A DNA stretch of 64,000 nucleotides, taken from NCBI GenBank assembly GCA_963744715.1, contig CAVUUR010000009.1:98766-162765 (forward strand). Reading direction: 5' to 3'. Below are positions 40,924-44,595 of this stretch, piece after piece (position 1 is the first letter of the stretch; the number at the start of each line of letters is the position of its first letter). The notes under the pieces were generated by a model. The model was given only the letters and a program-made list of their open reading frames with translations, did no database searches and had not been told where the DNA came from. The translations under genes were made by a program, and so were the position numbers. The DNA comes from an uncultured bacterium. Its GTDB lineage: Bacteria > Babelota > Babeliae > Babelales > JACPOV01.

Positions 40924-41286
40924 TTAATGTGTTGTATGAAATAAATTGTAGCTGTATATTGTATCCGGCCATGAATCCTGCCAGGTATATCCTTCTAAAC
41001 ATGTCATAAGGCCGTCTTTTATAAATAAAACAAATCCATATCCATAAACGTCATTTATAGTGGCGTCAACATCACCATAACCATATTCAACTGGCTCAAT
41101 TATATGGAGAACATTATTGGGCACAATAAAATCAGTAAAAAACCCGACACCAGTAAAATCTCTGCATTCTATATGTACACGTTTATACTGCTCTCGTAAT
41201 ACATTATTAATTGAAGTATCATGTTCCATTATTTTGTGCATAACTGCTTGTTCAAATTTTTCAAACGGTATTATTTTTCTGATCAT
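40924..41286 (-). CDS. Small hypothetical protein, putative orphan immunity protein
   Basis: Last gene of array behind toxin; RDFTGVGFFTDF...GFVLFIKDG...LEGYT. Confidence 0.65.
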   Translation of the reverse strand: MIRKIIPFEKFEQAVMHKIMEHDTSINNVLREQYKRVHIECRDFTGVGFFTDFIVPNNVLHIIEPVEYGYGDVDATINDVYGYGFVLFIKDGLMTCLEGYTWQDSWPDTIYSYNLFHTTH

Positions 41287-41290
41287 TAAT

Positions 41291-41674
41291 CTAATCTCTC
41301 AGTTTTTTTCCAAAGGTATATGAACCTTCTTTAATTTTGGAAAATATATGTTGTTTTAGTTCTTGATCATCAATTCTATCAAAATCATTGGTAAACCAAC
41401 GTAATGAATCGGGCAAACCTAAATTTTCTTTATACAGCAAGAGAGCCAATGTTGCTTGAATTTTTTCTAGCATAGCAAAGTAATCATCGGCCAATTCAAG
41501 TTTTTCGCAATTTTTTATCATAGAAAAAATATACATAATTTCCTGACCTAGCAATGACGGATTATTAGATAGATCAATTCCTATATTTTCTAATTCTTTC
41601 AATTTTTTATCTAAATCTATTGATGAAATGAGCATATTACGCAAGTAATCCTTATCATTGTTTTTAATGTTCAA
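41291..41674 (-). CDS. Small hypothetical protein, putative orphan immunity protein
   Basis: 127 aa, tightly packed in array, no signal peptide. Confidence 0.55.
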   Translation of the reverse strand: MNIKNNDKDYLRNMLISSIDLDKKLKELENIGIDLSNNPSLLGQEIMYIFSMIKNCEKLELADDYFAMLEKIQATLALLLYKENLGLPDSLRWFTNDFDRIDDQELKQHIFSKIKEGSYTFGKKLRD

Positions 41675-41679
41675 CTAAA

Positions 41680-42069
41680 TCATAGTATTTTTTCTGATCC
41701 AAAAGTTTTTTTATGCCAATATCCTTTTGGTTTACCATAAAACCATTCTTTGTTATTTTGATTTAAGAAGATTGTCAATTGTTTCATTGATATTTTATAT
41801 CGATAAAATAATGCAATTAATTCTCGTAAATCATCATCTGGTATTATGTTGCTTTTAATATACAAATGTAATTCATCAGAAATTCCACGAAATTCAATTA
41901 TTGATGGTATTCTTTTGATCCATTCAAAAAATAAATCTTCATCAATGCTGGAATAATACCAAACTGATTTTCCTACTAAAGTAATGTGTTCATTATTTTT
42001 TGTATAAAATCTGAGAGGTGTACAGATGAGTGTTATTTGTTTATTGAATTTGTTGATAATCTTCTCCAT
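41680..42069 (-). CDS. Small hypothetical protein, putative orphan immunity protein
   Basis: DEDLFFEWIKRI...LRELIALFYRY...YWH; array position. Confidence 0.62.
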   Translation of the reverse strand: MEKIINKFNKQITLICTPLRFYTKNNEHITLVGKSVWYYSSIDEDLFFEWIKRIPSIIEFRGISDELHLYIKSNIIPDDDLRELIALFYRYKISMKQLTIFLNQNNKEWFYGKPKGYWHKKTFGSEKIL

Positions 42070-42514
42070 CAGTTTTAATACTTAATGAAGCAAAAAAATC
42101 ATACAAATCGATACTCCACTCATCAACAGGTTGGGTTGCTCTTGCCATAAGATATAAATAACATGTTTGAGCATTATAAGGAGGAAGTTTAGCTCGTTTT
42201 CTTTTAAATGTTTGACCCCCAAGAATATGAATTTGTACGTAGACCATATTACGAACCTTATATAATGCCCATAGACTCATACGTGGATTTGTTTCTAAAG
42301 TCGATATATCAGCAATCAGACAAGAAACATTATGAGTTTTAAGTCTATCAATGCCTTCTTTCCACTGTTGTTTGTATTCTTGAATTGTCCATGAGTCAAG
42401 AGACATAATAAATTTTTCCTTATAATCACCTATGGTAATTTGTCCCCACTCACACAATTCACCAGCAATCTTTTTTGGCTTTTTGCTAACAACTTCTATC
42501 TTGAATTTCTTCAT
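42041..42514 (-). CDS. CdiI(ECL)-like immunity protein, second copy
   Basis: Paralog of 42987..43484: GQITIGDYKEKF, WTIQEYKQQWKEG, WALYKV, EWSI. Confidence 0.75.
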   Translation of the reverse strand: MKKFKIEVVSKKPKKIAGELCEWGQITIGDYKEKFIMSLDSWTIQEYKQQWKEGIDRLKTHNVSCLIADISTLETNPRMSLWALYKVRNMVYVQIHILGGQTFKRKRAKLPPYNAQTCYLYLMARATQPVDEWSIDLYDFFASLSIKTDGEDYQQIQ

Positions 42515-42545
42515 GGTAACTTTCTATAAATTTCCTGTTGGTGCA

Positions 42546-42983
42546 TTATGATGTGCGTATTAATTGCACTTTAGGTTCGCATGTATCAATAATATCTACT
42601 ATCGAATCTGCTGCAACGATAGAAAAATGTATGAATGATAATGAATCGCTAATACCATATGATTCTTCTGATAACCATTGTACATATGATGAATTAGTTA
42701 CTTTAAAGAATGTCCAATCTCCATAAAATTTTGAGCCGTAGCGCTCATCAAGTATGTTTATAGTATTTAATCTAAAACTTTCATCAACACTTCGATAAGA
42801 ATCTACAGAACCTTCAAAGGTTATTAAAACCTTATTGTTTTCATTATTATAATCAGAGAGCCAGACTTTAAATCCATCAATAGCATCAACAATTGAATCA
42901 ACATAATACTTAGCGGCCAAACCTTGTACTGGTTCCCATTTTTCCCATTGTTCTAGCATCGTTATCATTTCTGTATTATTCAT
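42546..42983 (-). CDS. Small hypothetical protein, putative orphan immunity protein
   Basis: Acidic 145 aa, no signal peptide, located in array. Confidence 0.62.
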   Translation of the reverse strand: MNNTEMITMLEQWEKWEPVQGLAAKYYVDSIVDAIDGFKVWLSDYNNENNKVLITFEGSVDSYRSVDESFRLNTINILDERYGSKFYGDWTFFKVTNSSYVQWLSEESYGISDSLSFIHFSIVAADSIVDIIDTCEPKVQLIRTS

Positions 42984-42986
42984 TCC

Positions 42987-43484
42987 TTATAAAGCTAATC
43001 TGGTAATATTGCTATCTACTGATGCAAAAAAATCTTCTGCGGCAATACTCCATTCTACAATTTTATGACCCTCTTCAGTTATTGAATCACCTTTTTCATT
43101 AGTTACCCGTTGATCAATAAGTTGATAACAGGTTTTAGAATAACAAGGAGATTCCCCAGGTGGTATTGTTTTCAATAATATACAACTGATAAGTTGATAC
43201 GTTACAAAAATAGTAGTATCAACTTTATATAATTTCCATAATCTTAAGCATGGAAGTCGAAACTTCGTCATCATGATAAAAGTAACGAAACATGAAGAAT
43301 CATGAGTTTTCAGTCTATCAAGACCTTCTTTCCATTGTTGTTTATAATCCTGAAGAGTCCACACATCTAACGGCATATCTAATATTTCTTTAAAAGAACC
43401 TACAGTTAGTTTTCCTTCGTGCCATAAAATTCCGGAAGCCGTCGTTGGCTTTTTGTTAATAACTTCAATTTTAAATTTTTTCAT
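42987..43484 (-). CDS. Cognate immunity protein, CdiI(ECL)-like
   Basis: Starts 1 nt after toxin stop; ExLxxPLxxWxxxDYKxxW, WxLY and GxKIxEW pattern as I recall for E. cloacae CdiI. Confidence 0.78.
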   Translation of the reverse strand: MKKFKIEVINKKPTTASGILWHEGKLTVGSFKEILDMPLDVWTLQDYKQQWKEGLDRLKTHDSSCFVTFIMMTKFRLPCLRLWKLYKVDTTIFVTYQLISCILLKTIPPGESPCYSKTCYQLIDQRVTNEKGDSITEEGHKIVEWSIAAEDFFASVDSNITRLAL

Positions 43485-43485
43485 A

Positions 43486-44595
43486 TTATTTTCCTATGGG
43501 TTTTCCATGAGCATCTAATGTACGTCTTTGCTTTTTTTTATCAAATTCTTTCCAAATACCCCCATTATGCCCATCTCTATCTGGAGAAATCCAAATATTA
43601 CGCTTTGGGTCTTTAAATACAAGTTTCCCATGATCGTCAAAGGGATGATTTTTGTCTTCTTTATAACCTAAAACTTCTGCTAATCTTCTGGCTTCTCTAT
43701 TCGTTAATCCTCCAGGCTTGTGTTTTGTTTCATCAATTTTTTCTTCATCAGAATCTTTTGTAGGTACTTCATTATTTTTAGGTTTTCCTGGAGCTTTATC
43801 ATCTTCTTTTTCTTTAGGAGGTATTGGCTTTGGTATAGGTTGGGTAGGAATTTGTTCGTTAAACAATGCATGACCAAGTTTATCCGGATATACTGAAATA
43901 CCATAACAAGGCACATCTGCTGGGCCAAAGAACTTTTTTATTCCTATGCCAAAGAGACCACCGAGGATAGCGCCACAACTTAACGTAATGGGTCCCAATA
44001 CACCACCCATACTGCCGCCAGCTGCTGCGCCGGTACCAAAAGCAATTCCTAAACCAATACTTATAGCCGGCAAAACCATATTATGCGTTAAAATTTGGTT
44101 GGTTCCAACAAAAAAAATATGCGTGCCTTTAACATGAATGGCATAGACGGTGCGCGGTTCTTTAAAAAATCTAATCTTAGAAATTCTTTTTACTTCATGT
44201 TGTTTAGAAAATAAAATATCGCCGATTTTTAATTGGCATGCAGGAATCCATTGCTGAGCATGCACCACATAAAATTCTTGTGTCGCTGTGCAGGTAATAT
44301 CCTCCCACCATTCATCGTTAAAAGAAATTGCAACATGATAATCGGTTTCACTTTTTCCTGCAGATCGAATAGGGCGTTTAACGAACCCCTGTTTAACAAA
44401 ATCAAAACTAGTAATCGATTGTCCATCTTCTACTACATCTTCACATACTAATCGAATTGGATACAGATCTACTGATTGATCTACAATGCTAACGAGGGTA
44501 TTGCCATCAAAGCCATGGCCATAACAATGAAACGGTAAAAAAAATTGGGAAATAATCAAAAACAGTGTTGTTGTATAGAGTGAAATACGCTTCAT
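43486..44595 (-). CDS. Secreted polymorphic toxin: signal peptide + Hint domain + Gly-rich hydrophobic segment + Ntox21-like rRNase
   Basis: GFDGNTLV...WIPACQLKIGD...VYAIHVKGTHIFFVG..ILTHN (Hint); WISPDRDGHNGGIWK (Ntox21-like tip). Confidence 0.85.
   Translation of the reverse strand: MKRISLYTTTLFLIISQFFLPFHCYGHGFDGNTLVSIVDQSVDLYPIRLVCEDVVEDGQSITSFDFVKQGFVKRPIRSAGKSETDYHVAISFNDEWWEDITCTATQEFYVVHAQQWIPACQLKIGDILFSKQHEVKRISKIRFFKEPRTVYAIHVKGTHIFFVGTNQILTHNMVLPAISIGLGIAFGTGAAAGGSMGGVLGPITLSCGAILGGLFGIGIKKFFGPADVPCYGISVYPDKLGHALFNEQIPTQPIPKPIPPKEKEDDKAPGKPKNNEVPTKDSDEEKIDETKHKPGGLTNREARRLAEVLGYKEDKNHPFDDHGKLVFKDPKRNIWISPDRDGHNGGIWKEFDKKKQRRTLDAHGKPIGK

Follow-up and report, generated by a model that had tools for sequence, protein, structure and literature searches.

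A polymorphic toxin-immunity locus with an N-terminal Hint domain from a member of the Dependentiae (Babeliales)

The stretch of DNA considered here (“the window,” 64,000 nucleotides of contig CAVUUR010000009.1 from an uncultured bacterium of the phylum Babelota, assembly GCA_963744715.1) contains a block of seven open reading frames (ORFs), running head to tail on the minus strand from position 44595 down to 40924, all seven of them open. The first ORF (43486..44595) encodes a toxin of 369 amino acids (aa), and we consider the block to be, more likely than not, a polymorphic toxin-immunity system typical of the Dependentiae (Babeliales), most likely aimed at bacteria of the same group. Among close relatives one conserved front end is found joined to unrelated toxin tips, which is a criterion by which Zhang et al. 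(2012; PMC3482391) define polymorphic toxins; two further criteria of theirs, an array of several immunity genes and an immunity gene that co-varies with the tip, are also found here as judged by sequence comparison. The source genome amounts to 1.26 Mb in 12 contigs and is 86% complete.

Domain architecture of the toxin

A first-pass annotation, made from the letters of the DNA, had described a 369-aa protein with a Hint domain ending in THN, a Gly/Ala-rich hydrophobic segment, a linker and a toxic tip, and every detail that we checked by ORF calling, Pfam and structure modeling was borne out. Pfam places PT-HINT (PF07591) at aa 81–171 (E 6.6e-9; 36.6 bits, cut-off 27.7) and Ntox21 (PF15526) at aa 306–355 (E 7e-10; 39.6 bits, cut-off 25), so that both of the domains it had named score above cut-off. 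The AlphaFold2 model, calculated from 136 relatives, has a mean predicted local distance difference test score (pLDDT) of 81, with the Hint domain at about 95 and a confident tip; it contains a hairpin of two helices at residues 177–197 and 202–223 (pLDDT 55–77) and a disordered linker at 251–289, where pLDDT falls below 50 at 251–253, 263–271 and 273–289. Foldseek relates the Hint domain to the bacterial intein-like domains BIL2 6y75 (TM-target 0.83) and 2lwy (TM-target 0.89). The tip as sole query matches the solved CdiA-CT of Enterobacter cloacae (4ntq_A, E 2e-4), and its residues D339, D341, H343 and K349 align with D203, D205, H207 and K214 of CdiA-CT ECL, reported as the active site of that 16S rRNase (PMC9086364). 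The Ntox21 tip is predicted to be a 16S rRNase in which the four catalytic residues are kept.

One front end, many tips

The genome has three PT-HINT genes: that of the window toxin, a paralog of 399 aa (locus L001), and a distant member of the family with a colicin-E3 “Cytotoxic” tip (L003). The 399-aa paralog is 91% identical in protein sequence over aa 1–235 and unrelated beyond. At the DNA level, window 44679..43903 and L001 1254..2031 are 94% identical, from 84 nucleotides (nt) 5' of the ATG to codon 231, after which the two genes are likewise unrelated. Nucleotide differences between them number only 2 in the 177 nt of the hairpin, as against 30 in the 438 nt of the Hint domain, a pattern which fits recombination anchored at the hairpin and its junction. 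The dN/dS ratio of the front end is 0.24.

A profile of the three front ends, run against 1.84 billion proteins, recovered 111 cluster representatives at E ≤ 1e-30. The best 150 matches are nearly all 300–460 aa long and match from about residue 1 to 230; removal of P0060 (1435 aa) and of 13 fragments shorter than 225 aa left a set of 136 members. In the phylum, the front end is found at E ≤ 1e-15 in 74 of 261 genomes, among them 56 of the 189 of good quality, and in 48 of 145 genera; the number of matches in a genome reaches six. Contigs were scanned for relatives with a 12-row front-end alignment; eight loci with the family lie in named genome records, three of which bear the name Candidatus Dependentiae or Babeliales. 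No match in the ESM Atlas scored 0.9 or more; the leads below that score include small PT-HINT clusters labeled Bacillota and a 264-aa PT-HINT/Ntox21 cluster labeled Pseudomonadota.

At least seven Pfam toxin families occur on this one front end. Ntox37 (22 members) and Ntox21 (16) are the most frequent, followed by Cytotoxic (colicin E3; 3), DUF4258 (2), and Ntox33, a Barnase-type Ribonuclease and Ntox17 with one member each; some 90 of the 136 members carry tips lacking a Pfam family and constitute a source of unnamed toxin-immunity pairs. Clustering of 126 tips gave 27 classes. A FastTree phylogeny of the front ends shows 75 changes of tip class, the minimum possible being 26, and 500 shuffles of the tips gave a mean of 80.4 changes (standard deviation 2.5), with 16 shuffles at 75 or fewer; which tip a member carries is thus nearly independent of its front end. 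The first-pass annotation had asked whether homologs of aa 1–230 carry varying tips, and the 27 classes, together with a paralog in the same genome that is unrelated after codon 231, answer this in the affirmative.

The family also has long members, of 856 aa (L030:525-3095), 949 aa (L031:219-3068) and 1106 aa (L032:703-4023), which begin with the same signal peptide, Hint domain and hairpin and have 500–700 extra residues between hairpin and tip; this extra region could be a receptor-binding or translocation part absent from the short forms. Given these members, the term “minimal” fits the window gene and not the family. The second largest tip class (P0022, P0010, P0029 and 27 others; 30 of 126) has no Pfam family, and its partner is of the same type as the 145-aa ORF of the window, found as a tandem fusion in L005.

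Immunity genes

The toxin gene ends in TAA and is followed, after a single base, by the ATG of the next ORF (42987..43484). This had been taken for a CdiI-type immunity gene, an assignment upheld by matches to CdiI_N (E 9.4e-12) and to the solved E. cloacae CdiI (4ntq_B, E 5.7e-6); the protein is also 44% identical to that encoded behind another Ntox21-tipped toxin of the family. The arrangement is general: in 12 of 13 related loci a small ORF on the same strand begins within 25 nt of the toxin stop (two of the 13 are the same sequence; L010, L011 and L017, which have no full toxin ORF, and the duplicates L012–L014 and L023 were set aside), and both Ntox37 tips examined have one and the same type of downstream ORF. 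Of the 57 Ntox21 matches in the phylum, 38 are followed on the same strand by a CdiI_N match at a distance of at most 1 kb, and in 36 of these cases it is at most 260 nt. Conversely, 37 of 71 CdiI_N matches are such Ntox21 partners, and six genomes have CdiI_N without any Ntox21. The predicted complex of the tip (aa 290–369) with the product of ORF 42987..43484, run without controls, had a score of 0.01 (mark 0.34), which speaks neither for nor against the pairing.

The first-pass annotation had not mentioned that the minus strand continues, as far as 40924, with five additional small ORFs; at least four of them have homologs directly behind family toxins with other tips and count as orphan immunity genes. 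One is a second CdiI_N gene (E 1.1e-12), whose product shares 42% identity with that of the first copy and 45% with the immunity protein of L004. The 145-aa ORF is 34–44% identical to the two halves of a 274-aa ORF directly behind the L005 toxin, which has an unnamed tip, and the 129-aa ORF is 54% and 47% identical to ORFs directly behind the Ntox37-tipped toxins of L006 and L007. The last, of 120 aa, shares 79% aa and 86% nt identity with L001 2594..2956, the ORF after the 399-aa paralog, and has a dN/dS of 0.30. Homologs of the 127-aa ORF were found in 29 of 261 genomes; in three of five loci they stand directly behind ORFs of 475–494 aa, for which Pfam gave no match, and in two of five they are part of small-ORF arrays. 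Since the three toxins of this genome have Ntox21, unnamed and Cytotoxic tips, at least the Ntox37-type, the L005-type and the second CdiI_N genes are without a matching toxin.

A 69-nt relic behind the immunity gene of the paralog (L001:2950-3018) is 87% identical to the 3' end of the 127-aa ORF (window 41292-41362), a trace of cassette reshuffling between the window and L001 loci. Directly behind the Cytotoxic-tipped paralog lies a 66-aa ORF (L003:684-884, minus strand) that is 31% identical (E 3e-5) to the last 55 residues of this same paralog. It is possibly an orphan tip fragment, and the ORF after it is 111 aa long. Orphan tip fragments are present in L031 and L033. In the latter, from another genome of the phylum, a CdiI_N ORF runs into a second, partial Ntox21 tip (L033:1739-2359; 206 aa in total) and is followed by a second CdiI_N gene, making this ORF a fused immunity and orphan-tip cassette. 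In L031 and in genomes G258 and G259, up to seven Ntox21 matches alternate with CdiI_N, some of the tips with in-frame stops, as in classic orphan cassette arrays. Small ORFs of the DUF6980 type (match in L008, E 1.2e-15) occupy the first or second place downstream of four family toxins whose tips differ (L008:7344-7727, L016:401-718, L018:415-705 and L022:298-615); the copies are 37–53% identical to each other, and this may be a shared accessory or broad immunity gene.

The Hint domain and the hairpin

In 125 of the 136 members, 16–45 residues stand ahead of the Hint domain. Position −1 before it is Gly, Ala or Ser in 119 of 132 members, and position −3 is Leu, Ile, Val, Ser, Ala, Cys or Thr in 128 of 132; the signal peptide was called by eye, on a basic start and a hydrophobic core, and on these family statistics. 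N-terminal cleavage or splicing by an intein requires an N-terminal Cys or Ser nucleophile and the block-B His. Position 1 of the family Hint domain is His in 112 members, Glu in 15 and Cys in none (n = 136), and the block-B His position is Gln in 129 of 136, so that with both elements lost the domain is at most a C-terminal cleaver. The residues for this are conserved: His159 in 134, His171 in 135 and Asn172 in all 136 members. The domain ends THN at residue 172 and thereby has the C-terminal His-Asn for Asn cyclization. The residue that follows is Met, Ile, Phe, Leu or Val in 116 of the 136 and a Cys, Ser or Thr nucleophile in 13. The position of the domain also differs from the usual, in that PT-HINT is generally placed just ahead of the toxin domain (Zhang et al., 2012, section 42), whereas here it is the first domain of the mature protein, with about 125 residues of hairpin and linker between it and the tip.

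The hairpin is rich in glycine and alanine (21% Gly, 13% Ala) and contains overlapping small-xxx-small-xxx-small motifs, 10 in the window protein with a family median of 6. P176, G201 and G212 are conserved in at least 90% of the family, and a tight, conserved Gly-Pro turn separates the helices. Searched alone against Pfam, the hairpin matched no family, with nothing below E 0.26. The charge around the hairpin is no more than weakly positive after helix 2 (median +1) and does not bear on topology. The estimated free energy of insertion by the translocon came out as positive, ambiguous sums and is given no weight here. The front end of about 230 residues offers a compact test case both for a Hint domain that has nothing upstream to release and for whether a glycine-zipper hairpin suffices for the passage of an enzyme across a membrane.

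Proposed mode of action

In the sequence of events that we propose, Sec would export the toxin unfolded and signal peptidase would cut right before His27, leaving the Hint domain with nothing in front of it. The Hint domain would then cut its own C-terminal bond only, between Asn172 and Met173, by Asn cyclization involving the conserved His159, His171 and Asn172, and would so free the hairpin, linker and tip with a new N-terminus. On the precedent of the Tde1 glycine zipper, the hairpin would enter the cytoplasmic membrane of the target and help the tip across, and the tip would cleave 16S rRNA. In the cytoplasm, the CdiI-type protein would guard the producer together with its kin, and the toxins of neighbors would be countered by the orphan immunity genes.

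With respect to export, the genome encodes two Omp85 proteins, which mark it as a two-membrane organism, two secretins and two ATPases of the type II secretion system (T2SS)/pilus type; we found no match for TolC. Two copies of gspD are described for all TM6 genomes studied (PMC4776705), in agreement with the two secretins here. The secretins would be candidates for outer membrane passage in the producer, and together with the ATPases they suggest that a general secretion machine may carry the toxin over that membrane. The first-pass annotation had seen no dedicated delivery module. As far as RHS, PAAR and LXG are concerned this holds genome-wide, as it does for VipB (no match in a genome 86% complete; MuF and VgrG were not searched for), but the genome-wide search for ShlB/CdiB, which also gave no match, was uninformative as its control was equally silent. 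The accompanying idea of a stripped-down delivery system is right about the domains and has to be qualified by the long family members and by the possible general secretion machine. In its strongest form, with the signal peptide, Hint domain and hairpin as a self-contained delivery device, in which the Hint domain is a self-removing safety catch and the unmasked hairpin alone carries the nuclease across the target membrane in a Dependentiae-wide warfare within protist cells, we regard it as conceivable and rather doubtful.

As targets, the first-pass annotation had named co-infecting bacteria and the ribosomes of host organelles. The orphan immunity genes for foreign tips favor warfare between bacteria over attack on the host, and the same genes disfavor the second proposal. 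The immunity array behind the toxin suggests that intracellular parasites fight each other; that such bacteria carry immunity genes against toxins they do not make themselves suggests that strains often meet, perhaps within the same host cell.

A number of observations weigh against a functioning inter-bacterial toxin of this kind. The Ntox21 profile is matched only over positions 3–50 of 71, and at the C-terminal RxG[ST] motif given for Ntox21 by Zhang et al. (2012) the window tip has R-R-T, with no Gly, where relatives P0003–P0005 have R-I-G-T; on both counts full activity of the tip is not certain. The hydrophobicity of the hairpin is borderline, with best 19-residue Kyte-Doolittle means of 1.71 and 1.63 for the two helices (family medians 1.44 and 1.87), so that the hairpin might stay in the inner membrane of the producer rather than be exported. 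The minimal forms have no visible part for receptor binding or outer membrane translocation. The near-random spread of tips may in part reflect a poorly resolved FastTree phylogeny, the representatives being at most 50% identical. Nineteen of the 57 Ntox21 matches have no CdiI_N neighbor, including the best-scoring ones, in longer proteins. The orphan immunity genes might be what remains of cassettes since displaced and not an active defense, and it is an assumption that different Dependentiae infect a host cell together.

Alternative explanations

The foremost alternative, which we consider unlikely, is that the hairpin is not a translocator and serves as a membrane anchor in the producer, in the inner or outer membrane or in vesicles, with delivery by contact or by vesicle fusion. 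Two helices of about 20 residues with a tight Gly-Pro turn between them would suit an anchor, as would the second helix, whose family-median Kyte-Doolittle mean falls in the range of membrane helices; the first helix, however, is weakly hydrophobic, and the glycine content of the hairpin speaks against an anchor. Budding outer membrane vesicles have been described for Chromulinavorax destructans (PMC6561590). Hint cleavage would here shed the Hint domain or, should the signal peptide stay uncleaved as an anchor, release the toxin from the membrane, and a release step makes more sense with an N-terminal anchor; yet in most members positions −1 and −3 before the Hint domain agree with cutting by signal peptidase I. 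Two helices would also leave both flanks on the same side of the membrane, so that a cut after the Hint domain would not free the tip from the hairpin.

Somewhat less likely again is that these toxins are host-directed effectors, the hairpin entering the membrane of a vacuole or organelle and the rRNase acting on mitochondrial or cytosolic ribosomes, with the immunity gene guarding the producer before export. Dependentiae/Babeliales are reported to be obligate intracellular parasites of protists (PMC4776705; PMC6561590; PMC12172432), secreted nucleases have been proposed as host-directed effectors in C. destructans (PMC6561590), and a self-inserting hairpin suits a toxin without an injection machine. 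Against a toxin meant for the host stand the immunity-type genes of the window for tips missing from the three toxins of the genome (Ntox37 type, L005 type and the second CdiI_N), and the six genomes with CdiI_N that lack Ntox21. Adjacent immunity genes are moreover described as a mark of inter-bacterial conflict, host-directed toxins of intracellular bacteria being without them (Zhang et al., 2012), and the Pfam scan of the locus proteins showed no eukaryote-type targeting domain.

The reading of the block as a dead remnant, or as a selfish cassette of toxin-antitoxin type that is never delivered, is suggested by the one motif of the Ntox21 consensus missing from the tip, and is made very improbable by the seven open ORFs, the low dN/dS of the front end and of the 120-aa orphan immunity gene, the conserved catalytic residues of Hint domain and tip, and a signal peptide kept across the family.

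Relation to known systems

The first-pass annotation had proposed a new toxin class. This was overstated: Zhang et al. (2012) list a signal peptide with HINT under the T2SS/Sec route, list both HINT and MafB-N with Ntox21, and give unstalked toxins a size of about 400 aa, and a Hint-Ntox21 fusion exists in Neisseria gonorrhoeae. The Neisseria locus shares with the window the Hint domain, the Ntox21 tip, an immunity gene directly 3' and orphan tip/immunity cassettes. It differs in having a long N-terminal region before the Hint domain, a Cys start and a tip about 20 residues after the Hint domain, whereas in the Dependentiae family the Hint domain comes first after the signal peptide, a Cys start is found in 0 of 136 members and a Gly-zipper hairpin stands between Hint and tip; in addition, the orphan cassettes of Neisseria start inside the Hint domain, while the swap point of the Dependentiae family lies after the hairpin. 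The Neisseria locus, whose record is unannotated, is probably of the MafB type. DUF1020 (MafB-N) had no Pfam match at E ≤ 1 in the window toxin.

The CdiA-CT/CdiI pair of E. cloacae (4NTQ) resembles the window pair in the sequence matches of tip and immunity protein and in the four active-site residues. Unlike the proteins of contact-dependent growth inhibition (CDI), the window toxin has neither a two-partner secretion (TPS) domain nor filamentous repeats according to Pfam, its carrier part measures 296 aa and not thousands, and its neighbors are immunity-type ORFs and unrelated genes. Tde1, a DNase delivered by the type VI secretion system of Agrobacterium, has GxxxG motifs that permeabilize the cytoplasmic membrane of the prey and are needed for delivery (PMC10240207). 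The repeated GxxxG motifs N-terminal to a nuclease are common to both proteins, but Tde1 is fired by the secretion system with an adaptor, whereas the VipB search found no type VI secretion system in the window genome and the hairpin would be unmasked by the putative Hint cleavage.

The ABP systems of Gram-positive bacteria, as described (PMC13460014), likewise combine a secreted, diffusible toxin, proteolytic activation and a cytoplasmic immunity protein. Their protease is a separate, co-secreted serine protease, whereas that of the family would be the Hint domain in the same chain, and the producer here has two membranes; no protease gene was found beside the toxin among the ORFs of 38000..48000, nor in 13 related loci. 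Colicin E3 and other nuclease bacteriocins have the same class of rRNA target and a small downstream immunity gene, and the L003 paralog even has the “Cytotoxic” tip. The Pfam scan of the window toxin gave no match to colicin receptor or translocation domains. Colicins are exported by cell lysis, in contrast to the export by signal peptide proposed for this toxin.

What is new, so far as can be read from sequences, is the combination of an N-terminal Hint domain without Cys1, a hairpin within the constant module, a swap point after the hairpin and the spread of such a family through one phylum. We found no paper joining Dependentiae with polymorphic toxins or Hint domains, although supplements may list similar architectures, and none on Dependentiae among the titles listed of papers with a PT-HINT term; the word “toxin” is absent from the available text of the TM6 comparative paper (PMC4776705) and of the Chromulinavorax paper (PMC6561590). 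The earlier view was that intracellular bacteria mostly lack toxin-immunity warfare, and Odyssella is named as a rare exception (Zhang et al., 2012); in the parasitic phylum described here, roughly one genome in four has a system of this type.

Locus layout and neighborhood

The features of the locus are collected in Table 1. Promoter prediction on the 5' leader of the toxin gene gave nothing above chance.

Table 1. Features of the toxin-immunity block, in the order of transcription (positions in the window).
Feature	Position	Strand	Remarks
5' leader common to the paralogous toxin gene	44596..44679	−	GGAG ribosome-binding motif directly 5' of the ATG, read from the sequence
Signal peptide, aa 1–26	44518..44595	−	Putative Sec type; signal peptidase I site right before His27
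Hint domain (PT-HINT, bacterial intein-like), aa 27–172	44080..44517	−	Keeps C-terminal cleavage residues only
Gly-zipper hydrophobic two-helix hairpin and conserved junction to Tyr231	43903..44079	−	Constant module ends here
Pro/Lys/Glu-rich disordered linker, aa 232–296	43708..43902	−	Variable part starts here
Ntox21 tip, aa 297–369, and stop codon	43486..43707	−	Predicted 16S rRNase, PF15526
Cognate immunity gene, CdiI_N family, 165 aa, without signal peptide	42987..43484	−	PF18228; 4ntq_B
Orphan immunity-type gene, 145 aa	42546..42983	−	Homology to ORF behind L005 toxin; no Pfam family
Second CdiI_N gene, 157 aa, orphan immunity against a different Ntox21 variant	42041..42514	−	PF18228
Orphan immunity-type gene, 129 aa, of a type that accompanies Ntox37 tips	41680..42069	−	Homology to L006 and L007 ORFs
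Small ORF, 127 aa, possible orphan immunity gene	41291..41674	−	Context of homologs; weakest assignment
Orphan immunity gene, 120 aa	40924..41286	−	Matches gene behind the genome's own paralogous toxin

PADLOC returned no match for any of the seven locus proteins, and NCBIfam nothing above its cut-offs. In the comparison of flanking genes, made to see whether the block is an insertion, the ABC ATPase on one side of the block was found in one of nine family genomes, there on a different contig from the other flank, so that the comparison does not bear on insertion. A divergent ORF of 315 aa on the plus strand (44772-45719) has a weak match to Peptidase_M48 (E 0.017, below cut-off) and was not seen beside family toxins in the other loci read. 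Between 40000 and 44000 of the window, the toxin-immunity block is the sole minus-strand stretch of its neighborhood; the G+C content there is slightly lower, 0.32–0.33 as compared with 0.35–0.39 in the flanks, and the GC skew is reversed.

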